Assembly: GCA_040382375.1 (NCBI GenBank)
Contig: JBEIFO010000001.1
Span: 1 to 38,472 of the forward strand
DNA from: Crocinitomicaceae bacterium
GTDB taxonomy: Bacteria > Bacteroidota > Bacteroidia > Flavobacteriales_D > Sanyastnellaceae
Length of the DNA: 38,472 bases
Direction of reading: 5' to 3'
Below the pieces are notes generated by a model, which saw nothing but the letters and a program-made list of their open reading frames with translations, was not told the DNA's origin and made no database searches. The translations under genes were made by a program, and so were the position numbers. Of the stretch, positions 7,196 to 31,710 are shown in pieces (the stretch's first letter is position 1; every line of letters begins with the position of its first letter).

Positions 7196-7230
7196 AATAA
7201 AAAAGTCCCACTGCAAGGTGGGATTTTTTG
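7196..7230 (-). terminator. rho-independent (bidirectional-looking) terminator ending the 16-gene operon
   Basis: The stem tcccac (7206-7211) / gtggga (7218-7223) has a 6-nt loop and is flanked by an A-run on the left and a T-run on the right, so a U-tract follows the stem on either strand. It is the first such structure after the last operon gene (stop at 7358). Coordinates are +/- 1-2 nt. Confidence 0.55.
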
Positions 7231-7357
7231 GTTTTGGGGAGTGAGGTTTCTATTTCGAAATAATGACTTCCTCTAATTTAACATGTTGCAGTTAAAGGGA
7301 AGTTTGCGAATGGGGAAATTAAAGTAAAAGCTAATTTCTCAAATCTTACAGAAATTA

Positions 7358-8887
7358 TTACTTCGAATAAATAACATTCTCATCGAGCATGGAGTTGATA
7401 GCTGCAATTTTTCTTTTGGTTGTTTTAACCAGGCGTAATGTTCGGGAAAAGTCAATGACAATCATGGTTGAATACAATATACAAGAGCCTGTGAGAATTT
7501 TCGTGCTGGTATTGGCTACATTCGGTGAATTCTTGTACCTAATGGGATCTTCATTATACAAACTGTTCGCAAAGAAGCGGGTCAAACCGGAAAGTGTTCC
7601 TGCAGCGAAGCCAATAACCATAAATTTTTGTGTGGCACATCTTTTATTCTTCTCCGAGGTTGAAAACAACCGCTTCGATCCACTAGTTCCGTTTTTGTAT
7701 CCTCGGCCAAAGAAAGACATCATGGGTAAAGCACCATAAGATTTTGGAAGATCAATAGATAACACGCGCATGACATCTGTTTCCAAAGGAATAACATTGT
7801 AGTCACCGGTAGTTAAAGTAGTGGAAAACGTTGAGTATTTTATTTGGGTGTTTACGGGCAGTTTCAGTTCTCCCTTGTACCTGCCTTTAAGCAAAGTGTG
7901 AAAAAGCGTCTCATTTGCAAGATCCAAGGGAACTGAATTCATCTTGGATTGCTTTTGAAAACTAAACTGAATGGCTAGTTCACTGGGCACTCTGTATGTT
8001 TTATTTCCGCGTGAAGCGACGAAGTATGATTTTTGTGTCCACTGCTTGAAGTCGCTTTCAATACCTTCTGTTACTTTAATAATTTGTTCGGTATCTAGAA
8101 TAATGTTTGACTGAAAAGTGAAGTTTGAAAAGGAACTCTCAGTAGTTGTGAAAACGAAATTTCCTTTCCATGTCACAGTGAAGTTTTCGTCATTGGAACG
8201 AGCGATTAAATTTATTTTCTCTTTGTATTTGTTCTCGAATGCGATTTTAGAAAGTTGATTGATGTTTTGGAATCTTCCTTTGTCAGAGCTAGTAATTCGG
8301 TTACTTAATTCGGAGTAGGGGAGTTGAGAGTGGTCATAAAAACTCTGAACGGTTTGAATAAGCACAGCAGCGTGATTGGATTCCAAATTACTTTCTGAAT
8401 TAAAAACAGATGCTTTTTTATCGTAATAATTTGCTGGATAAGTAGCAGGGAAATTCGAAGTTTTATAAGCACGAACAGTCCAGCAAGAGGGTACACTGCT
8501 ATTTAAGCTGTTTTTGTAGAAAGCTTGGAGGTAATTTTTGTCTGAGTTATTTGCTAATCGGTAGCCTAAAGTTGTGGAGTCTATTTGATTGAATAGGGTA
8601 TTGAAGGCATACCAGTTGTATGTTACAGAATTCCCCTCTACTAATGAGGCGGGAGAGTTCCAATTGTTCTGATATTTAAAATCTGTGAGATAGGCACAGC
8701 GATTCACTTCAGAGAAATTTAACGATTGTGCAACTTCGTTTAAGTTCGCGTTAGTACTAAATTGTGATAACGATTGTTCGGGTTGAAACACTATTGGAGA
8801 ATAGGGGAAATCTATTTTAATTTGGGCCGATATAGAGTGTCCAACAAGCAAGAAAGAAATCAATAAAGAGGTTCTTAGTTTTTTCAT
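7358..8887 (-). CDS. secreted beta-rich protein with C-terminal hydrophobic segments, unknown function (last operon gene)
   Basis: The ATG at 8887 gives the signal peptide MKKLRTSLLISFLLVGHSISAQ; the track start at 8929 adds an unlikely 14-aa extension. The sequence is S/N/T/aromatic-rich. Hydrophobic stretches FMVIGFAAGTLSGL and ILTGSCILYSTMIVI lie near the C-terminus. No family recognised. Confidence 0.55.
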   Translation of the reverse strand: MKKLRTSLLISFLLVGHSISAQIKIDFPYSPIVFQPEQSLSQFSTNANLNEVAQSLNFSEVNRCAYLTDFKYQNNWNSPASLVEGNSVTYNWYAFNTLFNQIDSTTLGYRLANNSDKNYLQAFYKNSLNSSVPSCWTVRAYKTSNFPATYPANYYDKKASVFNSESNLESNHAAVLIQTVQSFYDHSQLPYSELSNRITSSDKGRFQNINQLSKIAFENKYKEKINLIARSNDENFTVTWKGNFVFTTTESSFSNFTFQSNIILDTEQIIKVTEGIESDFKQWTQKSYFVASRGNKTYRVPSELAIQFSFQKQSKMNSVPLDLANETLFHTLLKGRYKGELKLPVNTQIKYSTFSTTLTTGDYNVIPLETDVMRVLSIDLPKSYGALPMMSFFGRGYKNGTSGSKRLFSTSEKNKRCATQKFMVIGFAAGTLSGLTRFFANSLYNEDPIRYKNSPNVANTSTKILTGSCILYSTMIVIDFSRTLRLVKTTKRKIAAINSMLDENVIYSK

Positions 8888-8918
8888 TTTTGAAATACTC
8901 GAAATTGTCGGATAGAAT

Positions 8919-9470
8919 CTAATTCCCATACTTTGTGAACTTGAGACTGACGTCAGTTGGTTTGTCTCCGTAGATTAAAATCGATTCGTCGTTGGCGAGA
9001 GAATAGACATACAATTTGTATTTCTTCTCCGAGTAATTTACCGTTGATTCGTCGCTATAGTCAACAAACAAACTTTCGTATTGACTTGAAGTCAAATCTA
9101 TTCTTAAGACAAGATGGTTATCTAAATCTGTAAAGTTGGTCCAAAATATATGTTTGTATTGATCGGGTGTGTAATCTCGGGTATATGCTGTTGTGAAGTT
9201 GTCTAGCAGCTTCACGCGAATCTTAGATTTGCATGCATTATTTCTTGACTCAAACTTATAGTCGAAGGGTATATCGAAAAAAAATCGGTCTTTAGATATA
9301 CTGCTCGTGGCCAAGTATACATTGCTTTCGATGAATTGAAAGTAATTTGCTTTGCTTGTAAAGGAAGTGTCTAGGTAATCTTGAATCTTGTCGTTTAACA
9401 AAGGAAAACACTCCTGAGAGAAACAAGGTTGGCATGCCAGAATAAAAATAATAATGACAGAGACACGCAT
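8919..9470 (-). CDS. small secreted protein, unknown function
   Basis: 183-aa ORF with signal peptide MRVSVIIIFILACQPCFSQ. It starts 1 nt after the upstream gene's stop. Confidence 0.5.
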   Translation of the reverse strand: MRVSVIIIFILACQPCFSQECFPLLNDKIQDYLDTSFTSKANYFQFIESNVYLATSSISKDRFFFDIPFDYKFESRNNACKSKIRVKLLDNFTTAYTRDYTPDQYKHIFWTNFTDLDNHLVLRIDLTSSQYESLFVDYSDESTVNYSEKKYKLYVYSLANDESILIYGDKPTDVSLKFTKYGN

Positions 9471-9471
9471 T

Positions 9472-10194
9472 TTACAATGATATTTTATCTATCCTAAAGT
9501 TTTTGAACCTCACACCTTTTGTAACGGAGGTAATTTCCAAAAGAACAGTATAATTAAAGCCTTTTTTGAGTTTTTGTTTGGGGTAATTAAATTCTCCACC
9601 ATCTTCTAAAGATAAAGTACCGGAACGAATAATTTCTTTTCCGGCAGGCCAATCCAAAACTACTAATTGTGCTTGGCAATAATTAAGAATAGTTGGGTCG
9701 TACATAAACTTATTTCCGCCACGTACGAGCAGCACATCCAATTCTCGTTCACATCCTTGTGCTTCACTTAGCCCATATTGAAGAGGGCAAGAGTCTTCTT
9801 TGTCTTTTATTCCGTCTTTATCTGTATCGTCGCTTTCCGGATTTGTTTTGTTAGCTAATTCTTGTTCAAGCGTAATACCGTCTTTATCAAAATCACAAGT
9901 ACCGCAATTTTTGTTTGGAACGCACGGCTCGTTGTCGTTCACATCTTGCGTTGAAGCATCCTTAACAAATCCCGCGAAAAAACCATCGCCATCTGCATCG
10001 TTGTTATTCTGAACCACGCTATCTTTCGGACAACCGTTGTTCAGCGAAGAGGCTACCGTTGGACATCTGTCTACCTCATCGGCAAATCCGTCTGAGTCAG
10101 TATCCACAACCTTGGTTTCCGGCGTATAGAGTATATACCCCAAAGCCACCAGCGCCACAATGAAAATAGTGAGTATCGGTATTCGCTTTTTCAT
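9472..10194 (-). CDS. thrombospondin type-3 (TSP3) Ca-binding repeat protein, N-terminally anchored or secreted
   Basis: 240-aa ORF with an N-terminal hydrophobic helix IPILTIFIVALVALGYILY. There are four Asp-rich loops of the DxDxDGxxDxxDxCP type: DTDSDGFADEVDRCP, NNDADGDGFF, CDFDKDGITLEQE, DDTDKDGIKDKEDSCP. A ~90-aa beta-rich tail follows. Confidence 0.65.
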   Translation of the reverse strand: MKKRIPILTIFIVALVALGYILYTPETKVVDTDSDGFADEVDRCPTVASSLNNGCPKDSVVQNNNDADGDGFFAGFVKDASTQDVNDNEPCVPNKNCGTCDFDKDGITLEQELANKTNPESDDTDKDGIKDKEDSCPLQYGLSEAQGCERELDVLLVRGGNKFMYDPTILNYCQAQLVVLDWPAGKEIIRSGTLSLEDGGEFNYPKQKLKKGFNYTVLLEITSVTKGVRFKNFRIDKISL

Positions 10195-10198
10195 TGAG

Positions 10199-11173
10199 TT
10201 ATTTCAATGGAATTCCTAGCTTACAGTTTGGATCTGTTAGAGCATCCTCGAATTTTTTTACAAGGAAAAGATAAGGTTTAATTGCGAGTAGGTATTTTTC
10301 TGAAGATTTGTATACTTCATCTCCTCTAAATTTTGGATTAGTATACTTAACATTTTCTTGCATCACCTCTTCAAATTTCGAACATAATTCAAGGAAACGG
10401 TCATAATCAGCTTTAACTTCAATTGCAGATTTTTGAAGACCCAGAAATGTTGAATTCGCTATTAAACTAGTTAGTGATAATTGCGCCTTTGTAAATTCAT
10501 CTTTTGATATATTCTCGTTTTTCAGCAATGTGATGGCCGATTGAAGCGCTGAGGCTTGCTTTTTAAATTCATCAAGTTTTGTTTTTGTCTCCTCTTTCTT
10601 CAGCTGGCTCTTCATCAAGTCAATTGTTGAGTTGTCAGGACTTTGACAATGTAAAATGTAGTCGTTCACTATTTGGTCATAGGCCTTGTCCTTGACTTCA
10701 GCTTCAGCACTGAGTTGGTTTTTTTGGTTTTTTTCTAAATTAGTTTGTTTCTTCTCATCCGAGAGAAGATTCTCGGCTTGCTTTTTTTCTTCAATCAATT
10801 TTTTATTAGAGGTTTCTAACTTCTTATATGCCACTGCAGAAGATACTAAAGAATCTTCTAGGACTTTTAACTTCGTGTATTGTTTGTTTATCTCCATAGG
10901 TATTCCATCTACCCCCGTTTTTAAATTCTTAACCTCTTCTTGAAGTAGTTTGAATTGTTCGGCTAAATCACTTAAATCTTTTTTTGTTAGCGGTCGCTTT
11001 GGGTCTTCCGGATTGCAAGGTTTTTCTTTCGATGAATTTTCTTTATCGTCTTTTCCTTTTTCATCTTTGATTTCAGTCTTATCTTTTTTAACCTTTTCCT
11101 CAACATCGACTTGAGAAAAGGCTGTCAATCCGAGAAATAGTAATGTTATGGAAGTGAGTAATTTTGCAGTCAT
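10199..11173 (-). CDS. secreted coiled-coil protein, unknown function
   Basis: 324-aa ORF with signal peptide MTAKLLTSITLLFLGLTAFSQ, followed by long K/E/L/Q-rich heptad-like sequence. Confidence 0.55.
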   Translation of the reverse strand: MTAKLLTSITLLFLGLTAFSQVDVEEKVKKDKTEIKDEKGKDDKENSSKEKPCNPEDPKRPLTKKDLSDLAEQFKLLQEEVKNLKTGVDGIPMEINKQYTKLKVLEDSLVSSAVAYKKLETSNKKLIEEKKQAENLLSDEKKQTNLEKNQKNQLSAEAEVKDKAYDQIVNDYILHCQSPDNSTIDLMKSQLKKEETKTKLDEFKKQASALQSAITLLKNENISKDEFTKAQLSLTSLIANSTFLGLQKSAIEVKADYDRFLELCSKFEEVMQENVKYTNPKFRGDEVYKSSEKYLLAIKPYLFLVKKFEDALTDPNCKLGIPLK

Positions 11174-11179
11174 CTTTTT

Positions 11180-11911
11180 TTATTTTTTATTTAGTTCTTC
11201 TATGTTTAGTCGATAAATTGCATAGTAATATTTATACTTCATCACGACATTTTCATCAATTTTGTACCAGTTTTTACTTGCTTGGGCTTGATTAAATTCT
11301 TGGTCTACAAAATAAAAAAAGGAAGAGATTTCGGAATAAATTTTACTTTCTAGACTGCTTATTGCTGTGCAGTTGCGAAATGGTTCGCCGTTTATTGCTG
11401 TAGATATTCCGTTCGCTAGTCCATCTGCCTGTGCTTGATCATAGGGCCCAGCTAGAAAGGCATTCAGTCTCGATTCGAAGTTTAAAACAGAGTTGTAGCG
11501 CGTGTGCGTATTCAATAAATCTTGAAGTTCATTGGATTTGTTTGAACAGTTATTGGCAGTTCGAATAACCTTGTCCAAGCCTGAAGCATTGCAGCTGTTG
11601 TTTAACCAGTTCTTCAGTGAGAGTACCAATGCGTTTTGCTTGGCATATTCAAGGTTACTGAGTAAACTTGATTTCTTTCCTGAATTAATTTTGCCAACCG
11701 ATTCGAACATGTTAATGTCACCTTCAATAGTTAACACGCTGTCTTCATTGAAAGGTAATTTTCCTAAGGAATCTATGCGCTCATCGATATTCATTTTTTT
11801 TCTTGGAGGTTCTCCGCCACTACCAAAAGGACCTTTGGTAATAAGTAAACTCAATCCGAACAAGAGTCCGGCTATGGCAATGACAATAATGATGAGACTG
11901 TGTTTTTTCAT
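11180..11911 (-). CDS. N-terminally membrane-anchored protein, unknown function
   Basis: 243-aa ORF with a single TM LIIIVIAIAGLLFGLSLLI after MKKHS, followed by a soluble domain with four Cys. Confidence 0.5.
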   Translation of the reverse strand: MKKHSLIIIVIAIAGLLFGLSLLITKGPFGSGGEPPRKKMNIDERIDSLGKLPFNEDSVLTIEGDINMFESVGKINSGKKSSLLSNLEYAKQNALVLSLKNWLNNSCNASGLDKVIRTANNCSNKSNELQDLLNTHTRYNSVLNFESRLNAFLAGPYDQAQADGLANGISTAINGEPFRNCTAISSLESKIYSEISSFFYFVDQEFNQAQASKNWYKIDENVVMKYKYYYAIYRLNIEELNKK

Positions 11912-11942
11912 GGTATATTATTGTTAAAACTGTAAAAGAATT

Positions 11943-12686
11943 TTAAGGCATTTGATTCATTAGTCTTTTTTGCTGGCTTGAGGTGAATTGGAACTCTGCC
12001 ACTTTGTTTATTATACAATCGGGGGTACATTTTCCTGCTCTGACATCCATCTCAATTTCTTTGTATATAGCTGCCTTTTCTGATGGAGTAAGCGTTTTTT
12101 TAGTCGGTGGTGTCACCTTAGGAATTTCCGTCCGTGGTGTTTTCGGTGGCTTAGGATCCTTAGGTGGACTCGTTACCGGTGGAGTTGTTGGAGGTGTTAC
12201 CGGGGGAGTTGGTGGTAGAGGGTTCGTTTGAGCGAGATCACCCTTGTTTTTCGCCTCCTCTGTTCTAAACTTCTCATCCCATTTAGCTAAAATTAGGGGA
12301 ATGTCACTACTAGGCGTTGCAGGTTTCCATTTGGCATCAGCGGTTCCTTCTTTCATTTCCCAAGCATTGTTTAAAAAGCGATAGAATCGTTTATTCGCAT
12401 TGTATTTACTTCCGTCTTCGGTGAGTAATGATTTTTCCACGCGATAAGTCTTGCCATCATATTCAAAATCTGTGTACTGTTCGTCATTGGCTGGAGGGAC
12501 AACTTTATCACCACCTTCTGATCCAGCTGGAGGTTTAGGAGTTACTGGAGGTAGCGGATTCTCCACAACATCAGGAAACCAGGTATTCCAATTCATTCCA
12601 GCAAAAAAGCAACCTGAGGCCAAGGCCAACGTCAAGATAGAGCTAAAGGTTATTTTAGCAACATTGTGATTATTTAGCTTTTTCAT
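11943..12686 (-). CDS. bitopic membrane protein; paralogue of the C-terminal module of the 12762-14834 protein
   Basis: 247-aa ORF. It aligns by eye over its whole length with residues ~455-698 of the upstream 698-aa ORF: the TM ending in F(F/A)AGMNWNTWF, a Pro-rich spacer, YDGKTYRVEKSLLTEDGSK...WEMK...DIPLILAKWDEKF, a second Pro/Lys spacer, and the C-terminal KCTPDCIINKVAEFQF..QQKRLMN. Confidence 0.6.
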   Translation of the reverse strand: MKKLNNHNVAKITFSSILTLALASGCFFAGMNWNTWFPDVVENPLPPVTPKPPAGSEGGDKVVPPANDEQYTDFEYDGKTYRVEKSLLTEDGSKYNANKRFYRFLNNAWEMKEGTADAKWKPATPSSDIPLILAKWDEKFRTEEAKNKGDLAQTNPLPPTPPVTPPTTPPVTSPPKDPKPPKTPRTEIPKVTPPTKKTLTPSEKAAIYKEIEMDVRAGKCTPDCIINKVAEFQFTSSQQKRLMNQMP

Positions 12687-12761
12687 ATGCCATTTTTTTT
12701 AGTTCGCATATAAATCAACTCTGAACTCGTTGTTTTTTTATGAATGATTTTATTCATTTGT

Positions 12762-14834
12762 CTAATCAAGCTCATTCATTAGTTGTTTTTGTTCGTTTGC
12801 GCCGAATTTAAACTCTTTCACTTTACTTATTATACAATCAGCATCACACTTGCCATTTTTAACCTCCTTTTTGATTTCTTCGAATTTCGCAGCTTTTTGA
12901 GCTGGAGTTAGAGGTTTTGTCTTTGCCTTTTCTGCAGCTGCTCTTTCCGCAGCTGCTTTCTCTGCAGCTACTTTCTCTGCAGCTGCTTTTTCCGCAGCTT
13001 TTGCTTTATCCGCTGCACTTTCATCTGTTTTTCTTTTTTCTGTTTCTGTGAAGTCCTTATTATCAGCTTCACCTTCGGTTTTTTTTACTTCTTGTTTAAA
13101 TCTTTTATTCCATTCAACTAATATAAAGGGTATATCAGTTTTTCCAGGAGCACCCCAACTTTCATCGCTATCCGATGTTTTCATCTCCCACTTTCCTCCG
13201 ATATAGCGATAGGTGCTGCCATTTCCATAACCAGCGGTTTGTCCTCCAAATTTACTACCTGTATCAGTTAATAGAGATTTTTCCACACGATAAGTCGTGC
13301 CATTGTATGGGAATTCAATATGATTATTTGCAATTTCAGCAGGTTTAGGTGTCACTGGTCCTGGAGGTTCAGGGTCTTTTGGTGGTTGCGGATCCTTTGG
13401 CCCCTCAACTTCATGTGAAAACCAATTATCCCAATTCATAGCCGCGAAAAAACCACCACCTGTCAATGCAATGGCCACAAATGCCATTACTGCTATTTTA
13501 GCTATCGGCTTTTCGTTCTTTACCCATTTTTTACTGACAAGAAATTGATATTTCTCCTGCATTTTTTTATCAAAAGGAGAAGCGCCATTTAGTCTTTTAG
13601 GCCAGCCCTCAATAGTCTTCAGCCATTCATTTTGTTTAACAAGAATTGTTGATCTGTCTCTGGTTGTAACTTCCTTGTAAATATGTACAATGTCATCCTG
13701 AATATCAGAATTCGTCTGCATTCGGCGCCAGTTCTTAAGCTTTATCTTCGAATCTGAAGGTAATCTTGATTCGAGCTGATTTTTTTGAAGTCTAGTCTCA
13801 ACAGCGTTAATTGGTATGCCGTATTCGTGTTTTTCGGCTTTATTAATATCATTAACTAGCTCATCAATTTCCTTTTTCTCGTTTGTGAGTATTTGATTAT
13901 CTAAAAGATTTTGCCAATTAAGCAGAGCTTTTTGTTCATCACCAGTTAGTTGATTGGTAATTTTTGGGAATTGAGCCAACAGATTTTCACACGGAGAATA
14001 ATCAGTTGAATTGTTCTGAATGAATGAACTAATTAGGTTTTTTAGTTGAAAGACTGCGCTTGAATAGTGCATTTCAGATTTCCAATTCTCGAACAAAGTG
14101 CGCTCATTTTCATTGAGTGCCGATGAAACTGTGTTATATAATTCATTCGCCTTCTGAAAATTCGATTTTGCACTCAGAAGGGCTCTGAATTCCACAACAC
14201 TTTGCGATCTTTTTTGATTTTCTTGATTTATTTGCCCCAGGTTCAATTGCTGAGTAGATAAATTCAAATGAATTGGTAATTCCGGATTGCTTCCGGTCTG
14301 CATGAAATAGACTTCATCACCAATATAATCATTTAAGTTAAGTTCAGACTCATTCTGAAAGTAACACACGGTATTGTTACCAATAGAGCGGGCATTTCCG
14401 GACGATAAGGTTAAATTGGAAATGACACTTCGAACTTGATCATTGGTGAACATGTTCGTGCGAATCGTATAGTCAGCATTGCGGGTTTTGTATAGTTTTT
14501 TTAGGTTTTGTAATCCGTCTTTAATACTCCCGCCAATGATATTCGACTTTGGACAAACAATGCTATAAACAAGGTATGTTTCTCTTCCTGCAATGTCTTG
14601 GTGCGATTTGTCTACCAAAGAATAGATTTGGTATTGGTGATCTTGCATGAGAAAATAAAAATCTCGTTGACCAGATCGAAAAGCAACGTCTTTTGCAGAA
14701 GTGAAATAATGACAAATATTGTCGTAGTCCTGAATTTCAGACGCCTCTGTTAGCCTGTTTCTCTCGGGGAAAAGAGCTGTGCCCTCTGTAAAACCATAAC
14801 GTACCCCCCAAATATAAACTTGAATCGTATTCAT
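12762..14834 (-). CDS. large bitopic membrane protein: ~450-aa cytoplasmic domain + TM + Pro-rich spacer + periplasmic module; GTPase partner candidate
   Basis: The ATG at 14834 lies 4 nt after the GTPase stop; the alternative GTG at 14858 would overlap it by 20 nt. The TM is IAVMAFVAIALTGGGFFAAMNW, the Pro-rich spacer is PKDPQPPKDPEPPGPVTPKP, there is an (AEKAA)n helix, and the tail is KCDADCIISKVKEFKF. The N-terminal domain has no family I can name. Confidence 0.6.
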   Translation of the reverse strand: MNTIQVYIWGVRYGFTEGTALFPERNRLTEASEIQDYDNICHYFTSAKDVAFRSGQRDFYFLMQDHQYQIYSLVDKSHQDIAGRETYLVYSIVCPKSNIIGGSIKDGLQNLKKLYKTRNADYTIRTNMFTNDQVRSVISNLTLSSGNARSIGNNTVCYFQNESELNLNDYIGDEVYFMQTGSNPELPIHLNLSTQQLNLGQINQENQKRSQSVVEFRALLSAKSNFQKANELYNTVSSALNENERTLFENWKSEMHYSSAVFQLKNLISSFIQNNSTDYSPCENLLAQFPKITNQLTGDEQKALLNWQNLLDNQILTNEKKEIDELVNDINKAEKHEYGIPINAVETRLQKNQLESRLPSDSKIKLKNWRRMQTNSDIQDDIVHIYKEVTTRDRSTILVKQNEWLKTIEGWPKRLNGASPFDKKMQEKYQFLVSKKWVKNEKPIAKIAVMAFVAIALTGGGFFAAMNWDNWFSHEVEGPKDPQPPKDPEPPGPVTPKPAEIANNHIEFPYNGTTYRVEKSLLTDTGSKFGGQTAGYGNGSTYRYIGGKWEMKTSDSDESWGAPGKTDIPFILVEWNKRFKQEVKKTEGEADNKDFTETEKRKTDESAADKAKAAEKAAAEKVAAEKAAAERAAAEKAKTKPLTPAQKAAKFEEIKKEVKNGKCDADCIISKVKEFKFGANEQKQLMNELD
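12930..13004 (-). repeat. in-frame 15-nt tandem repeat (about 5 units) encoding (AEKAA)n
   Basis: ttcYgcagctgcttt-like units repeat head to tail. The protein reads AAEKAAAEKVAAEKAAAERAAAEKAK. Confidence 0.7.
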
Positions 14835-14838
14835 GATG

Positions 14839-17156: not shown

Positions 17157-17196
17157 GAGGTAAGGAGTTGTTTAAAAATGTCATTTTAGGTAGCCA

Positions 17197-17204
17197 CAAA
17201 TATA
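17197..17204 (-). promoter_or_regulatory. candidate Bacteroidota -7 box (TATATTTG) in the 62-nt gap upstream of the 16218-17156 gene
   Basis: The plus strand reads caaatata, so the minus strand reads TATATTTG, which matches TAnnTTTG. It lies ~41 nt upstream of the ATG at 17156. No convincing -33 TTTG sits at proper spacing, and the motif is expected by chance many times in AT-rich DNA. Confidence 0.25.
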
Positions 17205-17218
17205 ACCATTTTTCAATT

Positions 17219-19408: not shown

Positions 19409-19442
19409 GTTTGAAATCTTTACTGTTTGTATGTGATAATTT

Positions 19443-20198: not shown

Positions 20199-20201
20199 GA
20201 A

Positions 20202-20945: not shown

Positions 20946-20957
20946 CAATAAGTTAAT

Positions 20958-21659: not shown

Positions 21660-21682
21660 TGCAGTTAATATAAATTCAGAAA

Positions 21683-22555
21683 TTATTTCTTAACGTAAGT
21701 TGTGTCGCATCTTTCATGCACGCGATTTTGCAGGTCTAGTAACTCTTGTTTAGTTTTTTCTAAATCGTTACACATTGCACCGCAATCAGGTTTGTTGCAA
21801 GATTTGCAGAGCCAAATGATTAAAAGCGTGTAAATGATTAGCCAAAACAATCCCCAAAAGCGGTACGAAATCCATCTGAGAATTCGTTTAATTCTTTCCC
21901 AAAATCCAACGCGATGCTTTACTATAGCAGGATCGATTATTGGAACTACCGGAATGGGCTGCTCTTCTTTAATTGCACCGCTTGTCGGTTGCTCTGTGTA
22001 TTGAGTATTTTGAAAAGTCGGTTGCACCGGAGCAGGTATCACAGGTTCTTCTTGTCTAACCTCGGGCTCGCTTACGGGAACAGCTGGTTTAATTGAGGGT
22101 GGAAGAACAGGCAGTCTATTGTCATTCTGTGTTTTGAAATCCCAGCCCCATAACATTCCCCAGTCTCCGTTTTCATTACCGATAAGAATTATTTTGTCGT
22201 GCTGAAAAAGAGTGTCAAGTAAATTCCCCCATTCTTTGCTATCTATGTCTTTTTTAGCAGTAAGCGGGTATGAAATGGATTTGCACTTTTTTAGGAATTG
22301 GTCGAATTCTAATTTTAATTGCTGTGCCCTTTCTTCGGAAAGCTCATTTATTTTTGAGAACGAGCCGTTCATATTGCCATACCATGCAATTTCACCATTG
22401 GCATTGAGGACAGGCTTAAGCAACTTATCAAGTTCCTGAGGACTCAACTTACCCCTTAAGAACGAAATGATAATTTCATAGGTGTCATAGAGATAGCGAT
22501 CTCTAAATGAAATTGGGGTGTAGTTATTACTGTACGTAGAATATAATAAGTTCAT
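21683..22555 (-). CDS. bitopic membrane protein: N-domain homologous to that of the S8 protease + Pro-rich linker + TM + short Cys-rich tail
   Basis: The ATG at 22555 lies 1 nt after the upstream stop (TAAAATG); the track start at 22564 is a TTG. The N-domain aligns with residues ~40-145 of the 729-aa protease. The TM is WGLFWLIIYTLLIIWL, followed by CKSCNKPDCGAMCND...RCD. Confidence 0.6.
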   Translation of the reverse strand: MNLLYSTYSNNYTPISFRDRYLYDTYEIIISFLRGKLSPQELDKLLKPVLNANGEIAWYGNMNGSFSKINELSEERAQQLKLEFDQFLKKCKSISYPLTAKKDIDSKEWGNLLDTLFQHDKIILIGNENGDWGMLWGWDFKTQNDNRLPVLPPSIKPAVPVSEPEVRQEEPVIPAPVQPTFQNTQYTEQPTSGAIKEEQPIPVVPIIDPAIVKHRVGFWERIKRILRWISYRFWGLFWLIIYTLLIIWLCKSCNKPDCGAMCNDLEKTKQELLDLQNRVHERCDTTYVKK

Positions 22556-22556
22556 T

Positions 22557-25319
22557 TTAAACAAAATTTAATGATTCTATCTCGTCGATTAATTCCTTTA
22601 GCTTGTTGTTCTCTTCAACATTGTACTTCCTGAATCCGCAGTTGGATAGAAGTATCAGTTGTACTTTGGTAATAAAGTTTTTATAGTGGTCAACCACTGG
22701 AAAAGTTACAGGTAAAATATTTGAAGAGCTGTCTTCTTCAAATAAATTAATTAATTCTTGATCAGATATGTTCTTACTTTTCGTGAGTAGAGAAGAAGTA
22801 TCAATGTTGAAAGTTTCTGCTAGTTCTAGAACAAGTTCATTTCTTTCTTCAGACATGAAGTTGAATCCGAAGTTGGAAACAAAGTCGTTGACATAGAATG
22901 TTATGATTGAGGCAAGATATTCATCGGTATCGTTAGAAACGCGCATTAACCTTGTTTTCTTTTCAAATAAATGAATGAGTTCTTGACGCACTCCAAATAT
23001 TTCAAAGGTTTGAATTAAGTTCTCACTAATTATTTTAACAGCCCCCAGATCGAGGCCTTGACTGGTATAGTCCTTGAAATTCTCAAGTTCTAATTTAGAT
23101 TTCCAAATTTCAATTACCCCATCAACTAAAGTGCTTGCAGCGGTTATGTGAACGTTTTTCAGAACTTCTGAAAGATCTATATTTTGAGCATTGAGCCATT
23201 CTTGCAATTGAGCAGGTGACTGCAAATTCTGTTTTTCCATGAGCATTCTCTCATTTTCCTCAACAGATTTATTTAGATCTAAGTCGTATGTTCGAATAAT
23301 AACCTCTTCGCGGGTAGGGGTGTGGTCGTTAGATGCAGGCAGGTAATGCTCATGAATGAAATTGTACGTTTCCGTATTCGAGATATAAAGTTTGGAAAGA
23401 AATTCTCCGAACTTCGAACCATTCGCAGTGAAAAGATTTAAGAGTTGCGTTCGAACTTTCTTACCATCATCCGCTGCCTGCTTTCTTTGATTCTGTATGT
23501 CATCTGTTTTATAATGCGATTTCAGATTCTTTAAAGTCAAGGTTTTGAAGCTTCCAAGTTTACTTGAATAGTTCTTCGTCTTAATTAAATTATTAGCAGC
23601 CGGGTACAGATCATTAATTATTCGTTGGCTTCCGTCTTTATTCGGACTTGATGATTCTTCCCAGGCCTCCAAAGGATTTCTGAAATGCTCTTTGATGTAT
23701 GGATATTTAGTGAAGCTTTCTTTTAATCGATTGTAGTAATCGAGTTTCTCTTGATGAATACCCGTTTCCTTGCCGCTTGCATGGAACCCCGAGAAGACGT
23801 CTTCTGAAAACTGATAATCACGAAGCATATAAAAGCTCTTAAACATGGCTTCGCTTGTGGTCCAATTCTCGTCCCAGTCATTGGCTTTGGTAACAGTTTC
23901 TTCTTTGAAAAGTCTGACGAATCGTTTTTCCCATTTCTCAGCAAGCTCGCCCTGATCAGAATTTGGGTTGAACTTCAACGTTTCATTGTAAAAGGTAAGT
24001 ACAACGAACAATGGGCTAGTTCCTGAATTTCCAATTCTTTTTTCACGCTCATCAGCATTTTCACCTACGTTTCTTTTAATCCAATCGTTAATTAAAAGAG
24101 GTATTTCCTTTACCTCGTTATTTCTATTGAATAGACAAAAGAGAAGGTTGTTAATTTCGTAGTTGGAAGAATACTTGTTGAATAAATAAGATACCTTACC
24201 TCTTAAAAATAAAGAAGGAATGGTACTCCTTTTTAAATCGCTTTGTTCGAATGGTTTTCTAGAACGTGCCCCAGGGAAGTCTAATAAGTCAGTGTTATGT
24301 AAAAAAGGTTTTTCCTCGGCTACTTCGGGGCTCAGAGGCATAGAAATTTCTGCAGTAAGAGCACTCAGTATATGAACGTCAATGGTAACTTGTTGTTTGT
24401 TCGAAAGAAGAATGTTAATATTCTCCTCGCGATCTAATATCCCTTCAACACGCATAACATCAAGGATCTTTCCTTCGTCGCGGTGTATTGCACTTTTATT
24501 AACGTAAACAGTAGTTTCGTAATTTAGAATTGAGAGTGCAGATAATAATTTTCGAAATAGTTCACTGAAGTTTTTGTCGAATGCCCAAATAATTTCGAAT
24601 AGTTCAACCCAACGCATGGGTTCTACTTTAGGAATCATATCTGCAATTTCAGCCCAAAATGCACTTTGTGAAAATTCGACAGCTTTTGAGCTGGCACGTT
24701 CCAAATAGTTTTCGAAATACTTTTTTAAATAATAAATATGATCCTCATTCAAATGCGTTTGGTTGTGAGTTGAATGAGCCAAGCTTTTCTTGAAATTCTC
24801 GAGATGTGAATCTATTTCAGCCGTCGAAGGATAAGATTCGAGCTTAATAATATCTGAGAAAAAACTATCGCTTAATATCAGCAATACATCTTTTGTATCT
24901 AAAAGCTTAACTTTTATTGGATAATCATTGCTAATGATTTTTGAATCAATAGTGAAGCGGCTAACTACTCCAGTACTTTCTGTTCCACCACCTCTTGGAT
25001 TTATGGACTGAAGAAAATCGATGTTCTCATTGGGAAGCTGAATCTCTAGATTCTTGTGCTCAGATGAAAGTAGGTTTTTTACAAGGTACGATTTACCCAC
25101 TTGGCTCACGCCGAAAAGTGCGAAAACAGGTTTGGTTTCTACACTGTCTTCTATCGTTTTTATTTCAGACTTCGTCTCCAGTAATGAATTTAACATTACC
25201 CCTTTCTCCTCAAGACTTAAATTCTCCTTTGTCCACCCTGCGGCAGAGGACATCAGTTTATGAAATTCTAATGATTCTTTTCGAAGTTGAACAAGTTCTT
25301 CTTTGCTGTAATTCTTCAT
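22557..25319 (-). CDS. large P-loop GTPase, SrfC-like (putative virulence factor family), dynamin-sized
   Basis: 920-aa ORF. Walker A/G1 is FALFGVSQVGKSYLV (25089-25112), followed by INPRGGGTESTGVVSRFT, and G3-like LLDFPGARS (24270-24281). It starts 5 nt after the SrfB-like gene. Gene order and size match my recollection of srfB-srfC. The assignment has not been verified by a search. Confidence 0.6.
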   Translation of the reverse strand: MKNYSKEELVQLRKESLEFHKLMSSAAGWTKENLSLEEKGVMLNSLLETKSEIKTIEDSVETKPVFALFGVSQVGKSYLVKNLLSSEHKNLEIQLPNENIDFLQSINPRGGGTESTGVVSRFTIDSKIISNDYPIKVKLLDTKDVLLILSDSFFSDIIKLESYPSTAEIDSHLENFKKSLAHSTHNQTHLNEDHIYYLKKYFENYLERASSKAVEFSQSAFWAEIADMIPKVEPMRWVELFEIIWAFDKNFSELFRKLLSALSILNYETTVYVNKSAIHRDEGKILDVMRVEGILDREENINILLSNKQQVTIDVHILSALTAEISMPLSPEVAEEKPFLHNTDLLDFPGARSRKPFEQSDLKRSTIPSLFLRGKVSYLFNKYSSNYEINNLLFCLFNRNNEVKEIPLLINDWIKRNVGENADEREKRIGNSGTSPLFVVLTFYNETLKFNPNSDQGELAEKWEKRFVRLFKEETVTKANDWDENWTTSEAMFKSFYMLRDYQFSEDVFSGFHASGKETGIHQEKLDYYNRLKESFTKYPYIKEHFRNPLEAWEESSSPNKDGSQRIINDLYPAANNLIKTKNYSSKLGSFKTLTLKNLKSHYKTDDIQNQRKQAADDGKKVRTQLLNLFTANGSKFGEFLSKLYISNTETYNFIHEHYLPASNDHTPTREEVIIRTYDLDLNKSVEENERMLMEKQNLQSPAQLQEWLNAQNIDLSEVLKNVHITAASTLVDGVIEIWKSKLELENFKDYTSQGLDLGAVKIISENLIQTFEIFGVRQELIHLFEKKTRLMRVSNDTDEYLASIITFYVNDFVSNFGFNFMSEERNELVLELAETFNIDTSSLLTKSKNISDQELINLFEEDSSSNILPVTFPVVDHYKNFITKVQLILLSNCGFRKYNVEENNKLKELIDEIESLNFV

Positions 25320-25324
25320 TCTGT

Positions 25325-28300
25325 TTAAGTTCTTGAGTTAATAGACAAAGTGAATTCTGCCGTGTCGAACCAATATCCGTTTTCGCTGGCCAGCGTAATA
25401 AGTTTTATTGTGAACATTGAATTGGAAATACTATCTCCATTCGCATCTACAACTTCTTCAAGTTCTAGTTTTTCTCTGTCAATGTCAAATTCGCGGCTTA
25501 CCTTAAACGTGAATGGAAGCTTCGCATTATTCTCATTTATGATATTTTGATACACGTTAGCGAAATTTCCAGGATTATTCATGGTTCTGGATTTGGCTTG
25601 ATTACTTATGAAAAGTTCATTGTAATCTATTTGATAAATATATCGAGCTGGATAATTGTTAGAATCTACTTTCTTCATTCCTATTTGAAGAGGAATGTAG
25701 TAGGCGTTAAAGCTAATTTGTTTTTGCTCAGGATTCATGATCACATTTGGAATGACATTATCTTGAATTTGTCCTAAATAATTCGCGGTCGATTGTAATC
25801 TCATTTTAAGTTCGTCGGCATTTATTTTGAACTTATTTAATTTAAAAAACTTCGTGCCCATCAGTCCAATTAGAGCTCCAGTGGCTACAATTGTCTTGGG
25901 ATCTTTGATGTATCCGTTGTTATCTGAAAAAGGGTACCATTTGCCAATCCAATAGTTATTCAAATTAATAAACCTGTTCGGCTGCACTGGGTGTATCTCC
26001 AAGAAAAGTTCTTCAATAGCTTTTAAATTACAAGGTCTTCCAGATATAATAATGAAATCACATCTGTAGAGGTGCATTAATTTTGCAACTTGCTTAATTA
26101 ATTTTGAAAAAGTGAAGCGTACAACGTTATTTACTTTTTTAGGATTTAAGTTCCATGTTAAATCTTCAAATCGGAATCCAAAATGTTCATGGAAATAATT
26201 CAACAGATCATCACTCGGCTTGTTGTCAGCAAATAGCTCTTGATAGCTCACTGTTTCGGATTGAGAGTTATTTGCAATGTCAAGGTACTTATGGGCAATA
26301 GGTATACCAATTTGGTTTAAGAAATTAACACGCATCATGCGTGTTAAATAGCTCATAGTGGCAGCATCTCTTCCAAAGAAACCGTTGATTTTCTCTCTGA
26401 TTTCATTCCCAATAACGGAGTATCCGAAGTTTTCAATAACACCTGAACATCCTATGTCATCAGGTGAAAGTTGCGCTCCTTCTATAATTATTGATTGAAT
26501 AATATTTTTAATTAGATCATCACCGGCCAAATGAAATCCTTCGAAATATAATGGTTTTGGTTTTAGTTCGGTAGAATTGTTAAACGTCAACTCATATTCG
26601 CAGATCATTAAATCGGAGGTGCCTCCTCCAATATCAAGTGATCCTATGGTTAGCACTTTTTTATCATCTGGCGTTTTGTGACCGAAAATATTAAAGAGGT
26701 CAGTCGGGTTTCCATCGAATTTATGTTGAATCAGCCCATACATGAAGACAAGCTGACTGCATGTAGCTTCGTCATAGATCCAATCAACTCTGTCCTCGAG
26801 TGGCTCGTCGTGATTTTTCCTTAGGTCGGCAATTCTAGGTATAATATCAAAAGAATCAGCGACCATTGGGCTAATTACTGCTCCGCTTGAATTTATTTTT
26901 TTAGAATAATTTGAAAGCATTTTCACAGCTTCTTCTGCGCATTGTCTTAACGCCACTTGCTCGGCTTTTATCATTCCAATAGGACAGCTAATTACAACAT
27001 GTCGTAATCTTCTTCTAGAATTTGGTTTGCCATGAATGGATCGAAACTCAAAAGAGTTGAACTGTGCAATAGCTTGGGAGAAAATCTCTAAAAACAAAAA
27101 TGTCATTAAAGTCTTTCTCGAGTAAAGGGGCAATGCTCCGAAGGCGTCATCTGAACAATACGCTCCGTCACTCTTTAACTGTTCTGAAATGCCTTTTTTA
27201 TAGACGTTTTTAGGTATTTCAGCTGCATTATCATGGAATTTCCATGGGGTCTTAGACGCTTTTTTATCCCATAGATATCGCTTAGGACTTGAGTTGAATG
27301 ATTTTGTTTCTTGTTGTATATTTCGCTTTACTTCGAATGCATGAATGAGGTTTTCAGCTTCAAAACCAATTCTGACAGGGCTAGGCCATAAAAACTTTTC
27401 TTGGCCCGCAAAAAAAGAATCCTCTAATCCGAATTTTTCATCTCGAAACACAATTCGAGTAGAAAATGCTTCACCATATGATTTCGAAGGGTTACTAAGG
27501 TCTCTTATTTTTAATTTCTTTACTTTGTTAAAGTTAATCTCACCCTCTGTGGGTGTTTCGAAAAGTATAGCGCAAGTATGAGAATTCCCAACATCTATTG
27601 AGAGATCTAGATCAATAACATCTGATTGGTCACTGAGCAACTGAATCGTGGGTAATTGCATACTCGATTTCAATAACCGAAGCAAATGAATGTAACTCGC
27701 GAGGTGCTTGGTTTGCGAGTCTGTAGCATTGAATTTGAATAAACTCTTTAGCCAACTTTCCACCCAACCGCAACCAGTGAAATCGCTGAGAAAACTCAAG
27801 ATGGAATCTTCGTTTTGACAGATATGGTATTTGTTCTCGTTGGGATTAGAATTTAGTAATGGAGTGTGATTTTGATTGTTCTCATCGGTTATCGTCGTGT
27901 CAATGGCGAGAACGAATTTTAACTCTGAAGACGCCTCAATGTATTCAAACCAACAACGAACCCAGTCAGTTGGCCCGAATAGATTATCATTGATTTGATT
28001 GTTTTTAAAGTAGGGTAATGGAATCCATTTTTTTTCAAATTGCTTTAAGGTCTTTTCTATATTTCGTATGGAAAATGTTCTTTCTTCATCCTCATCAAAC
28101 AAATAAACATCAGAGCTAACAATTTTATTTATGGCTTCAATATCAGCAAGGCTATCGCGATCAATTCGTAATTTTAGCAGATCAGATTTACGGATGAGTT
28201 TACCAAGACTTTTTATTTCAATCAACTCTTCGAACCAATACTTCATGGTAAGGCTATCGATCCCTTCGAAATAATTGAACCTTAGAGCTCTGAATTTTTG

Positions 28301-28369
28301 CGCATCTAATTTTATTGAAAAATCTAAAATTTGAATGCCAGTGCTCGAAATCAATGAAATATATTCCAT
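25325..28369 (-). CDS. Hsp70/actin-fold (ASKHA) ATPase, SrfB-like
   Basis: 1014-aa ORF. Phosphate-1 is DLSIDVGNSHTCAILFE (Asp259 at 27593-27595), phosphate-2 is IGSLDIGGGTSDLMICE (Asp579 at 26633-26635) and the adenosine-type motif is FIIISGRPCNLKAI. It also has SPKRYLWD, which I associate with the SrfB family. It is the first gene of the operon. Confidence 0.65.
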   Translation of the reverse strand: MEYISLISSTGIQILDFSIKLDAQKFRALRFNYFEGIDSLTMKYWFEELIEIKSLGKLIRKSDLLKLRIDRDSLADIEAINKIVSSDVYLFDEDEERTFSIRNIEKTLKQFEKKWIPLPYFKNNQINDNLFGPTDWVRCWFEYIEASSELKFVLAIDTTITDENNQNHTPLLNSNPNENKYHICQNEDSILSFLSDFTGCGWVESWLKSLFKFNATDSQTKHLASYIHLLRLLKSSMQLPTIQLLSDQSDVIDLDLSIDVGNSHTCAILFETPTEGEINFNKVKKLKIRDLSNPSKSYGEAFSTRIVFRDEKFGLEDSFFAGQEKFLWPSPVRIGFEAENLIHAFEVKRNIQQETKSFNSSPKRYLWDKKASKTPWKFHDNAAEIPKNVYKKGISEQLKSDGAYCSDDAFGALPLYSRKTLMTFLFLEIFSQAIAQFNSFEFRSIHGKPNSRRRLRHVVISCPIGMIKAEQVALRQCAEEAVKMLSNYSKKINSSGAVISPMVADSFDIIPRIADLRKNHDEPLEDRVDWIYDEATCSQLVFMYGLIQHKFDGNPTDLFNIFGHKTPDDKKVLTIGSLDIGGGTSDLMICEYELTFNNSTELKPKPLYFEGFHLAGDDLIKNIIQSIIIEGAQLSPDDIGCSGVIENFGYSVIGNEIREKINGFFGRDAATMSYLTRMMRVNFLNQIGIPIAHKYLDIANNSQSETVSYQELFADNKPSDDLLNYFHEHFGFRFEDLTWNLNPKKVNNVVRFTFSKLIKQVAKLMHLYRCDFIIISGRPCNLKAIEELFLEIHPVQPNRFINLNNYWIGKWYPFSDNNGYIKDPKTIVATGALIGLMGTKFFKLNKFKINADELKMRLQSTANYLGQIQDNVIPNVIMNPEQKQISFNAYYIPLQIGMKKVDSNNYPARYIYQIDYNELFISNQAKSRTMNNPGNFANVYQNIINENNAKLPFTFKVSREFDIDREKLELEEVVDANGDSISNSMFTIKLITLASENGYWFDTAEFTLSINSRT

Positions 28370-31709: not shown

Positions 31710-31710
31710 T

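Follow-up and report, generated by a model that had tools for sequence, protein, structure and literature searches.

A Bacteroidota SrfABC-type locus with split SrfA-like anchors, a predicted subtilase and a second GTPase module

A run of 16 minus-strand genes (g1 to g16) in a 38,472-nt stretch of a Crocinitomicaceae bacterium genome (assembly GCA_040382375.1, contig JBEIFO010000001.1; this whole stretch is called the window below) appears, with good support from sequence comparison, to be a complete, rearranged and expanded Bacteroidota version of the SrfABC system. The initial annotation of the window recognized SrfB and SrfC in the first two genes and knew of no described system with this composition. 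In the literature we searched, no paper was found describing this Bacteroidota architecture (a fusion of the SrfA N-terminal domain, SrfA-N, to a protease; split SrfA paralogues; an obligatory DO-like GTPase block; a dynamin-like SrfC), but SrfA-N domains in g3 and g7 had been missed, and because of them the locus reads as a complete SrfABC-type system rather than as SrfBC plus 13 unrelated proteins. The SrfABC family is already known from Pfam, NCBIfam and a few papers, though its mechanism is not; the Bacteroidota composition is what is new. Its most probable role, which we favor with moderate confidence, is membrane or envelope surveillance, repair or remodeling, coupled with periplasmic proteolysis.

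Conservation of the gene set

The core of the locus comprises two blocks whose joint inheritance is well supported by comparison of related loci: block A contains SrfB, SrfC, the SrfA-like anchors and an S8 protease, while block B contains g8, g9, g10 and g12. An SrfC-based metagenome scan returned 538 relatives, and gene content was counted over a total of 60 loci in which 8 kb or more follow SrfC. SrfB, g8 and g9 were each present in 57 of the 60 loci, the S8 protease in 55, SrfA-N in 48, g12 in 40, the N-terminal domain of g10 in 27 and the transmembrane (TM) stub proteins described below in 25. When genome loci were instead found through the g9 GTPase, SrfB and SrfC were also present in 15/15 with enough flank, and among loci with enough flank there was no instance of the g9 family without SrfBC. 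The SrfC family itself comprises more than 1,400 sequence clusters.

The gene set persists as GTPase identity falls from 90% to about 24%, and occurs in Flavobacteriales, Cryomorphaceae/Crocinitomicaceae, other Bacteroidia, Cytophagales (on a Runella plasmid) and gut Bacteroidales. In two loci (L014 and L032) the order is permuted, with g8-g9-g10-g12 preceding SrfB, SrfC and the SrfA-like genes, and the blocks are still adjacent; the S8 protease is present in L032, while the fetched flank of L014 ends ahead of the protease position. Adjacency that persists through permutation and deep divergence indicates that the blocks are functionally linked, in agreement with the initial proposal of one apparatus or pathway.

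A complete system, including SrfB, SrfC, an SrfA-N-S8 protein, a g8-like protein, the GTPase and a g12-like protein, is carried by the 93-kb plasmid pSP2_1 of Runella sp. SP2 (locus L024, NZ_CP031031, 1-43159). Proteins with CarboxypepD_reg/Ig-like repeats occur in both the Runella and the gut versions of the system. One such Runella product, a downstream protein of 1101 amino acids (aa), has these repeats on both sides of a TM segment, and its N-terminus looks SrfA-N-like by eye.

Two loci showed irregularities. In the metagenome contig L028 (4801-7772), gene calling divides SrfB into products of 383 and 583 aa, and short stretches fail to align with the window, which may reflect an assembly problem or a disrupted allele. 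A metagenome-assembled genome labeled as uncultured Comamonadaceae (L007) carries a fully syntenic Flavobacteriales-type locus with a GTPase 53% identical to g9; its betaproteobacterial label is most likely a binning error rather than a sign of inter-phylum transfer.

SrfB and SrfC

The two genes at the head of the cluster are as follows.

25325..28369, minus strand: g1, SrfB, 1014 aa, predicted cytoplasmic Hsp70/actin-like (ASKHA-motif) ATPase (Pfam PF07520)
22557..25319, minus strand: g2, SrfC, 920 aa, predicted cytoplasmic dynamin-like large GTPase (Pfam PF10139 and Foldseek)

Both assignments were corroborated by full-length Pfam matches. The g1 product matched PF07520 over profile positions 11-989 of 992 (E 3.4e-183, 611.7 bits, cut-off 27.1), and the product of g2, which begins 5 nt after g1, matched PF10139 over its full length (E 4.4e-119, 399.6 bits, cut-off 28.1). 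The nucleotide-binding motifs initially reported for g1, g2 and g9 are all present and are invariant in homologue alignments. In SrfB, the phosphate-1 (DxGNSxT), phosphate-2 (DIGxGTxD) and adenosine (GRP) motifs occur in order and are invariant across homologues of 33-44% identity; the residues concerned (D259/G261/N262/S263/T265, D579/G581/G583/T584/D586 and G777/R778/P779) are invariant in seven divergent homologues. A TM scan found no TM segment in g1, and g1, g2 and g9 carry no export signals. The window SrfB is 24-26% identical to proteobacterial SrfB.

In SrfC, the P-loop (G70..G75-K76-S77) and D347-x-P349-G350 are invariant in 48 sequences, so that G1 (GxSQVGKS), a candidate switch-I threonine (T116) and G3 (DxPG) are all invariant. 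An AlphaFold2 (AF2) model built from the 48-sequence alignment reached a mean predicted local distance difference test score (pLDDT) of 84.5 and a predicted TM-score of 0.75. When this model was compared with the Protein Data Bank (PDB) by Foldseek, the top 31 matches were all dynamin-family proteins; the best was the bacterial dynamin-like protein BDLP (2j69; E 3.8e-6, probability 1.00), and others included Campylobacter DLP (5oxf, DLP1/2), Drp1, OPA1, Fzo1, MFN1/2, MxA/B and dynamin. SrfC is thus predicted to be a dynamin-like large GTPase with a stalk/bundle fold and may remodel membranes. At the sequence level, SrfC gave no Pfam dynamin match, no PADLOC match and no dynamin among its PDB sequence matches; PDB sequence and profile searches with SrfB and SrfC returned chance matches only (nanobodies, a cytokine receptor and lactate dehydrogenase). 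No paper connecting SrfC with dynamins was found in the literature searched.

SrfA-like anchors and the S8 protease

Five genes follow SrfC within block A.

21683..22555, minus strand: g3, 290 aa, SrfA N-terminal domain joined by a Pro-rich linker to a TM stub; hardly any periplasmic part (NCBIfam SrfA_fam)
20958..21659, minus strand: g4, 233 aa, paralogous TM stub followed by a periplasmic C-domain of its own (N-terminal 85 aa 38% identical to g5/g6)
20202..20945, minus strand: g5, 247 aa, TM stub and Cys-containing, beta-rich periplasmic domain (stub 83% identical to g6 over 89 aa)
19443..20198, minus strand: g6, 251 aa, TM stub and a third type of periplasmic domain (stub paralogy; C-domain family of 7)
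17219..19408, minus strand: g7, 729 aa, SrfA-N, acidic/Pro-rich linker, TM helix, conserved juxtamembrane domain and predicted periplasm-facing S8 subtilase (Pfam/NCBIfam)

The NCBIfam model SrfA_fam (NF040486, positions ~20-218) aligns with g3 residues 34-198 (E 1.4e-6, 28 bits) and g7 residues 20-217 (E 1.5e-10, 41 bits). Both scores fall below the full-length cut-off of 150 bits, the N-terminal half alone being alignable, and neither protein is a full-length SrfA family member: the lipocalin-like SrfA C-region is absent from g3 and replaced by the S8 protease in g7. The two N-termini are paralogous to each other (blastp 1.6e-11; hhalign 100%). A profile of 14 SrfA-N sequences aligned with SrfA of a Klebsiella plasmid at 93.4% hhalign probability (E 2.5e-7, 137 columns), and phmmer searches with the Klebsiella SrfA reached several Bacteroidota SrfA-N proteins directly, down to 1e-16. 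A TM helix follows SrfA-N in both proteins (aa 232-250 in g3, 265-283 in g7), and g3 terminates about 40 residues past it. The initial description of all 13 products other than g1, g2 and g9 as membrane or secreted proteins needs correction for g3, g7 and g10, which are bitopic proteins with large cytoplasmic N-terminal domains.

Each of g4, g5 and g6 starts with a stub in which a short basic stretch precedes a TM helix and a Cys-rich juxtamembrane motif. The three stubs are homologous to one another, to the C-terminal stub of g3 and to the TM region of g7, and each leads into an unrelated periplasmic domain (head) of 130-160 aa. All-against-all hhalign comparison of 19 locus domain families found no hidden paralogy beyond g3-g7, and the g10 N-domain is not another SrfA-N. 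In L031 the SrfA-N-TM proteins keep their own heads of ~150 aa, an unsplit form; compared with it, the window seems to have an ancestral plan divided into platform-only and head-only genes. The SrfA plan would accordingly be divided among g3 (SrfA-N and TM, no head) and g4-g6 (TM stubs with three heads, no SrfA-N), with g7 complete. The Cys-rich periplasmic segments and the DsbA-compatible topology of these proteins fit the proposed envelope orientation.

The initial annotation spoke of diversified modules. In a wider comparison of the heads, 26 stub proteins fall into 5 C-domain families, with 1-3 copies per locus, and a hypervariable head repertoire was rejected in favor of a small combinatorial set. 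The g4 C-domain cluster has three members, all in close relatives, while the g5 C-domain family was found in six loci. Metagenome contigs with 100%-identical SrfC (L026 and L027), from the same population as the window, differ here (window 19443-20945): neighboring genes are 98-100% identical, whereas g5 is 84% and g6 88-92% identical, with indels. The heads are hence the fastest-changing part of the locus and g5 the most strain-variable, and the difference is one of localized allelic divergence of periplasmic head genes between near-identical strains. An apparent deletion of the g4 cassette in L026 was rejected as a scaffolding artefact, with N-runs at the repeated stub sequences.

The S8 protease proposed at first sight is well defined in g7 (Peptidase_S8, PF00082; E 1.6e-45, aa 448-707). 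Its catalytic triad (D455, H491, S673) and oxyanion residue (N605) are invariant in 25 homologues across the phylum, and the g7 head is therefore a predicted active subtilase. The best NCBIfam S8 match of g7 was mycosin (E 5e-31), at 108 bits against an equivalog threshold of 279.

The second GTPase module and downstream genes

Nine further genes complete the cluster.

16218..17156, minus strand: g8, 312 aa, polytopic, with 3 N-terminal TM helices, a ~180-aa helical domain and 1 C-terminal TM helix (TM scan); first gene of block B
14839..16191, minus strand: g9, 450 aa, predicted cytoplasmic TRAFAC GTPase with an N-terminal helical domain, DO-GTPase-like (DMAGE, TKAD; motifs and AF2)
12762..14834, minus strand: g10, 690 aa, predicted cytoplasmic N-domain of ~440 aa, TM helix (~447-465), Pro-rich spacer and periplasmic tail (TM scan)
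11943..12686, minus strand: g11, 247 aa, anchor-only paralogue of the g10 TM segment and periplasmic tail (32% identity to g10 aa 452-697, E 1.6e-38)
11180..11911, minus strand: g12, 243 aa, N-terminally anchored, putatively periplasmic protein, conserved member of block B (locus survey)
10199..11173, minus strand: g13, 324 aa, putatively secreted coiled-coil protein (signal-like N-terminus; only a coiled-coil-type SMC match)
9472..10194, minus strand: g14, 240 aa, TSP3-type (Ca-binding) repeats and a beta domain at the C-terminus, anchored or secreted (Pfam TSP_3, NCBIfam)
8919..9470, minus strand: g15, 183 aa, small secreted or lipoprotein-like (N-terminal hydrophobic segment with ILAC)
7358..8887, minus strand: g16, 509 aa from an internal ATG, putatively secreted (signal peptide MKKLRTSLLISFLLVGHSISAQ), with a hydrophobic C-terminal region; last gene

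Scans of Pfam, PADLOC and NCBIfam gave no family match for g8. The GxxxxGK[ST], DMAGE and xKxD (TKAD) motifs of g9 are invariant, including D275-M-A-G278-E279 in 16 sequences down to 33% identity. The AF2 model (pLDDT 83.9) comprises a helical N-domain and a TRAFAC GTPase domain, and its Foldseek neighbors are generic (SR-beta, YcjX, MglA, Npa3, EF-Tu, Rab/Arf). The structure searches suggested for SrfC and g9 thus yielded dynamin-superfamily matches for the former and generic GTPases for the latter. The label "Ras-like" first given to g9 needs correction: by signature this TRAFAC GTPase is nearest the DO-GTPases. The g9 sequence scores 20.1 bits against Pfam DO-GTPase2, below the cut-off of 27, and some homologues have weak precomputed matches to one or other DO-GTPase family (PF19993/PF19975); some also contain a Zn-ribbon-like CxxC...CxxC insert. 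With 171 cluster representatives at E <=1e-30 among 1.84 billion, the g9 family is small, and the window and most other loci have one member each.

The g10 gene always lies directly downstream of the g9 GTPase gene; its cytoplasmic domain is conserved and its tail variable. In the window the tail consists of a Pro-rich segment and a domain shared with g11, whereas it is replaced by a LysM peptidoglycan-binding domain in L014 (11195-12817, E 5e-11) and by TSP3 repeats in L033 (19622-21211, E 2e-6), which points to putative contact with the cell wall or with Ca-dependent ligands. A GAP1 domain in g10 was considered and rejected: GAP1-N/M/C matched neither g10 nor nine divergent homologues at E <=1, and g10 itself drew no other Pfam match. 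The g12 gene is present also in the Runella plasmid and in gut Bacteroidales and has no family assignment.

Genes g11 and g13-g16 appear from their distribution to be lineage-specific additions after block B. At the g13 position, genes of similar size occur in L001 and L003, and a secreted coiled-coil protein in Runella. The proposed TSP3 repeats of g14 are visible as D-rich repeats and draw NCBIfam TraB/MtsC/MtsD TSP3-type matches, but the Pfam TSP_3 match itself is sub-threshold (E 1.5e-4). Homologues were found of g14 in L001, L003, L007 and L012, of g15 in L001, L003/L009 and L007, and of g16, at the same terminal position, in L001 and L009.

Cluster boundaries and transcription

Rechecking of open reading frames (ORFs) and junctions upheld the initial account of the layout in full. 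The 16 consecutive minus-strand ORFs run from 28369 to 7358, all without internal stops; from g1 to g16, with ATG starts, they are separated by 5, 1, 23, 12, 3, 34, 62, 26, 4, 75, 31, 6, 4, 1 and 31 nt. The junctions TAA-A-ATG at 22553-22559 and TAA+4 nt+ATG at 14832-14841 are exact. No opposite-strand ORF with homology support lies within the span, and no internal terminator-like site of note was found inside the cluster. Two regulatory features can be proposed.

7223-7196, minus strand: terminator-like hairpin (G+C-rich) followed by a T-run, TCCCACCTTGCAGTGGGA CTTTTTTATT, 3' of g16 at the cluster end
17157-17218, minus strand: candidate internal promoter TATATTTG with a TAnnTTTG motif, in the 62-nt g7-g8 gap (consensus match only)

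The next minus-strand gene, g17 (6024-7145, a predicted polytopic lipoprotein), begins after the hairpin, 212 nt from g16. It was rejected as a 17th member on account of the terminator, this gap and the lack of a g17 homologue in related loci. The Bacteroidetes-type TAnnTTTG motif has a single match among the intergenic gaps examined, exactly at the boundary between blocks A and B, and none in the 600 nt upstream of g1. A single transcript for g1-g16 is plausible and two transcripts are possible. A sigma-70 promoter scan was discarded, as its matches were at or below shuffle expectation and the sigma-70 model is unsuited to Bacteroidota. An invertible promoter upstream of g1 was also rejected, the inverted repeats being weak (71-80% complementary).

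Comparison with described systems

In a published description of SrfA, the SrfA-N domain lies in the cytoplasm and is connected by a disordered linker and a single TM helix to a lipocalin-like domain in the periplasm (bioRxiv 10.64898/2026.09.18.752743). The locus resembles srfABC of Salmonella, Xenorhabdus and Klebsiella plasmids in its full-length SrfB and SrfC, in the succession of SrfA-N, linker and single TM helix, and in its distribution over cytoplasm, inner membrane and periplasm. It differs in having the order B-C-A rather than A-B-C and at least five further conserved genes rather than being a three-gene unit. SrfA, moreover, is multiplied in the window and split into platform-only, head-only and complete forms, with the lipocalin-like C-domain swapped for an S8 protease or small unrelated domains. 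The proteobacterial accessory set, as in the Klebsiella plasmid (L025: von Willebrand factor A (vWA) protein, Lol-like ABC pair and SUMF1/formylglycine-generating enzyme (FGE)), is absent here, and g8, the DO-like GTPase, g10 and g12 occur instead; the Klebsiella plasmid srfABC, for its part, lacks block B.

Block B invites comparison with the DO-GTPase conflict systems, whose hallmark is a Glu after Walker B and which contain paired paralogous GTPases in 38% of systems (Kaur, Burroughs, Iyer, Aravind 2020, PMC7159879). Likenesses are the conserved Glu after Walker B of g9 (DMAGE), the weak PF19993/PF19975 matches in its family, the conserved partner gene that comes right after it, the large number of components with TM segments and the presence of an Hsp70-class ATPase within the operon. 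In contrast to those systems, however, g10 has no GAP1, there is a single GTPase rather than a paralogous pair, no GASH/FNIII protein was found in the window, the Hsp70-class protein is SrfB rather than DnaK with GrpE and DnaJ, and g9 scores under the Pfam threshold. Without GAP1 in g10, g9 and g10 resemble a DO-GTPase/GAP1 pair by position only.

Among bacterial dynamin-like proteins (DLPs; Nostoc BDLP, Campylobacter DLP1/2, Bacillus subtilis DynA, LeoABC/Eleos), the SrfC model is closest to BDLP and mitofusin-type proteins, with which it shares the P-loop and DxPG, and it belongs, like them, to a membrane-proximal system. Unlike them, SrfC has no evident membrane paddle (recruitment is predicted to occur via SrfA-N and SrfB) and a non-canonical G4, and it pairs with an Hsp70/actin-like ATPase instead of a second DLP. 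The g7 protease, in turn, is comparable to membrane-anchored subtilases of secretion systems, such as the mycosin of the type VII secretion system, in that an S8 catalytic domain is held at the membrane outside the cytoplasm, but its anchor is N-terminal and preceded by a cytoplasmic SrfA-N, and no type VII secretion genes are present.

Probable function and significance

We favor an envelope surveillance, repair or remodeling role for this Bacteroidota SrfABC complex, and most probably not a part in gliding, in adhesion or in secreting a host toxin. Apart from domain identity, topology and co-inheritance, the mechanistic steps outlined here are inferred. The SrfA-N domains could act as membrane docking platforms for SrfB, which would then recruit SrfC, by analogy with the Xenorhabdus SrfA/B/C complex seen by co-immunoprecipitation and native polyacrylamide gel electrophoresis (PMC6950479) and with an AlphaFold 3 model from Haemophilus in which the SrfA platform binds SrfB and then SrfC (bioRxiv 10.64898/2026.09.18.752743). 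Homologous TM stubs with Cys-rich juxtamembrane segments may bundle head-only and platform-only paralogues with the protease, and two nucleotide switches, SrfB/SrfC and g9/g10, would in this way be linked through the inner membrane to events at the periplasmic heads. The g9/g10 pair could constitute a second GTPase switch tied to the cell wall or periplasm, with g10 as the bitopic partner of g9. As potential outputs, the dynamin-like SrfC could use GTP to remodel or stabilize the inner membrane, and the activity of the tethered protease in the periplasm could be controlled. A precedent is the bacterial dynamin-like protein DynA, which functions in membrane surveillance and repair (PMC8844932, PMC12998192).

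All parts of the proposed complex map, by prediction, to the cytoplasm, inner membrane or periplasm. The locus had initially been taken for a trans-envelope apparatus; family and TM scans of g1-g16 found no outer-membrane barrel, type IX secretion system (T9SS) tail or outer-membrane lipoprotein module, and with no outer-membrane component the term "trans-envelope" is unsupported.

Several observations weigh against the favored reading or parts of it. Published SrfABC work calls the system a toxin. The putative ASKHA fold of SrfB rests on its motifs and Pfam family, the match to a DnaK profile being local: hhalign against the DnaK nucleotide-binding domain (with an approximate query sequence) gave 35% probability and E 4e-4 over 58 columns around the phosphate-2 motif DIGGGTSD. 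No conserved [NT]KxD, i.e., no canonical G4, was found in SrfC homologue alignments, and its GTP specificity is accordingly putative. Global TM-scores of the SrfC model against dynamins are low (0.17-0.26; <=0.26 for full-length targets), though this is to be expected for flexible multi-domain proteins in different conformations, and the dynamin match rests on the Foldseek E-value and probability. Finally, the candidate promoter in the g7-g8 gap means that blocks A and B could be regulated separately.

SrfABC has been in databases since 2000 as a "virulence factor" without a mechanism, and this locus reframes it. SrfA would be a modular transmembrane adaptor that can lose its periplasmic head or exchange it for a protease or for small domains, and a second GTPase module, with tails of cell-wall- or Ca-binding type, appears to be an obligatory companion of the Bacteroidota trio. 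The system may also provide a new example of a bacterial dynamin that acts at the inner membrane together with an Hsp70/actin-like protein. Through this cluster, the function of the SrfC family becomes accessible to genetics in Flavobacterium, Bacteroides or Runella.

Alternative explanations

The alternative that survives best, though we consider it doubtful, is that the locus encodes an envelope-level anti-phage or conflict system in which variable heads sense an invader, the DO-type GTPase and SrfB/SrfC serve as NTP-dependent thresholding switches, and the protease and/or the dynamin-like protein respond. The response might, again tentatively, be to seal the membrane, to abort the infection or to degrade an invader protein that has been injected or is present in the periplasm. 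The DxxGE signature of g9 and the weak Pfam DO-GTPase matches are consistent with this idea, as DO-GTPases are predicted conflict-system regulators. Proteobacterial srfABC loci contain vWA with FGE/SUMF1, the other regulator/effector pair of predicted conflict systems; similarly, a Bacteroidota-type metagenome locus (L091, 1063-4997) has two co-directional FGE-sulfatase (SUMF1-like) genes just upstream of SrfB (compare SUMF1 at L025 22512-24080). The number of head paralogues varies from 1 to 3, g5/g6 differ between strains (84-92% identity) where their flanks are 98-100% identical, and DynA confers phage protection (PMC8844932).

Three genomic contexts are also suggestive of conflict: on the Runella plasmid a BREX-1 cluster and an AbiEii gene immediately precede the system, in Fluviicola genes for a type I HsdR, RadC and an integrase come before it, and in L031 a GmrSD/Schlafen-AlbA2 gene is two genes away. 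These were not matched in 38 further loci, and a defense-island association, like the conflict role raised as a possibility in the initial annotation, was therefore not borne out. Among 98 non-redundant upstream flanking proteins from those loci, PADLOC matches were to generic kinase- and primase-type domains (two proteins each), and Pfam matches were mainly housekeeping, with no defense enrichment in a tally made without a formal background control. A PADLOC 2.0 scan of g1-g10 gave no model match except a generic subtilase for g7, and a scan of IMG/VR found no SrfC relatives. No GAP1 partner, second GTPase paralogue, nuclease, TIR or pore-forming effector was found, and the head repertoire is small. 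The flank survey, the lack of IMG/VR relatives and the lack of PADLOC matches in g1-g10 make defense a minority reading.

A broader form of this idea, which we likewise regard as unlikely, is that SrfABC loci overall, Bacteroidota and proteobacterial, are an unrecognized class of envelope-level immune or conflict systems in which polymorphic SrfA-like TM sensors recruit SrfC and SrfB. The interchangeable regulators would then conceivably be the DO-type GTPase in Bacteroidota and vWA with FGE in Proteobacteria, mirroring the two classes of Kaur et al., and the output a tethered protease together with membrane sealing. If true, a conflict-system reading would add an envelope-level immune mechanism and re-annotate many "virulence" genes.

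It is highly improbable that the locus encodes a "toxin" or virulence factor aimed at a host and released in membrane vesicles, the role put forward for SrfABC of Xenorhabdus, Haemophilus and Salmonella. Dynamin-like proteins are able to drive vesiculation, e.g., LeoABC in enterotoxigenic Escherichia coli, which counts in its favor. Xenorhabdus SrfABC preparations are cytotoxic and insecticidal (PMC6950479), and a 2026 preprint argues for vesicle export (bioRxiv 10.64898/2026.09.18.752743). However, the published cytotoxicity was seen when cells were treated with lysates or purified proteins, or were transfected, and a natural delivery route was not shown. The carriers found here are free-living freshwater and marine Flavobacteriales, Cryomorphaceae and Cytophagales, plus gut commensals, and such mostly free-living aquatic and gut-commensal carriers argue against a dedicated host toxin. 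Furthermore, SrfB, SrfC and g9 have no export signals, the SrfA-like proteins are predicted to be stably membrane-anchored, and family scans found no known toxin domains in the 16 proteins.

Nor is it at all likely that the cluster is several independent adjacent modules (SrfBC with the anchors, the g8-g12 GTPase module, and g13-g16) under separate regulation. In favor of that reading, the blocks permute as units, the TAnnTTTG motif lies in the g7-g8 gap, and g13-g16 occur in close relatives only. Against this, blocks A and B are found together in ~95% of loci, in both orders and across deep divergence, and the g9 family was never seen apart from SrfBC where flanks sufficed.

Least credible is a role as an accessory to gliding, to T9SS or to the dynamics of surface adhesins. 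A T9SS cargo gene that encodes PKD and CHU_C Ig repeats (PKD_5, Ig_7, Por_Secre_tail) does lie divergently upstream, as initially noted, and MglA is among the structural neighbors of g9, but the cargo gene is retained only in close relatives (L026-L028 and L034; 88-100% SrfC identity) and absent in all other contexts examined, g1-g16 have no Por_Secre_tail, Gld/Spr or other gliding or T9SS family match, and the system also occurs in gut Bacteroidales, which to our knowledge do not glide. A functional link to T9SS adhesins was rejected on these comparative grounds, and the adhesin and gliding explanation is largely refuted.

Other features of the window

Between the cluster and the 1653-aa T9SS cargo gene are three plus-strand genes (29348-33111; 367, 421 and 478 aa) with no Pfam match. 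This stretch has an unusually strong positive GC skew (0.22-0.36), and its gene set is kept only in the same close relatives (L026-L028, L034). An Rfam scan of the window found two tRNAs only, both outside the cluster; these minus-strand genes (38162-38235, 71.6 bits; 38281-38354, 67.1 bits) come just after the T9SS cargo gene, where the window ends. On the other side of the cluster (3877-4457, plus strand), a 103-aa ORF matches the first half of the Pfam model of a DsbA-like thioredoxin and is directly followed by an overlapping 90-aa ORF in another frame, which may represent a frameshifted or split dsbA-like gene.

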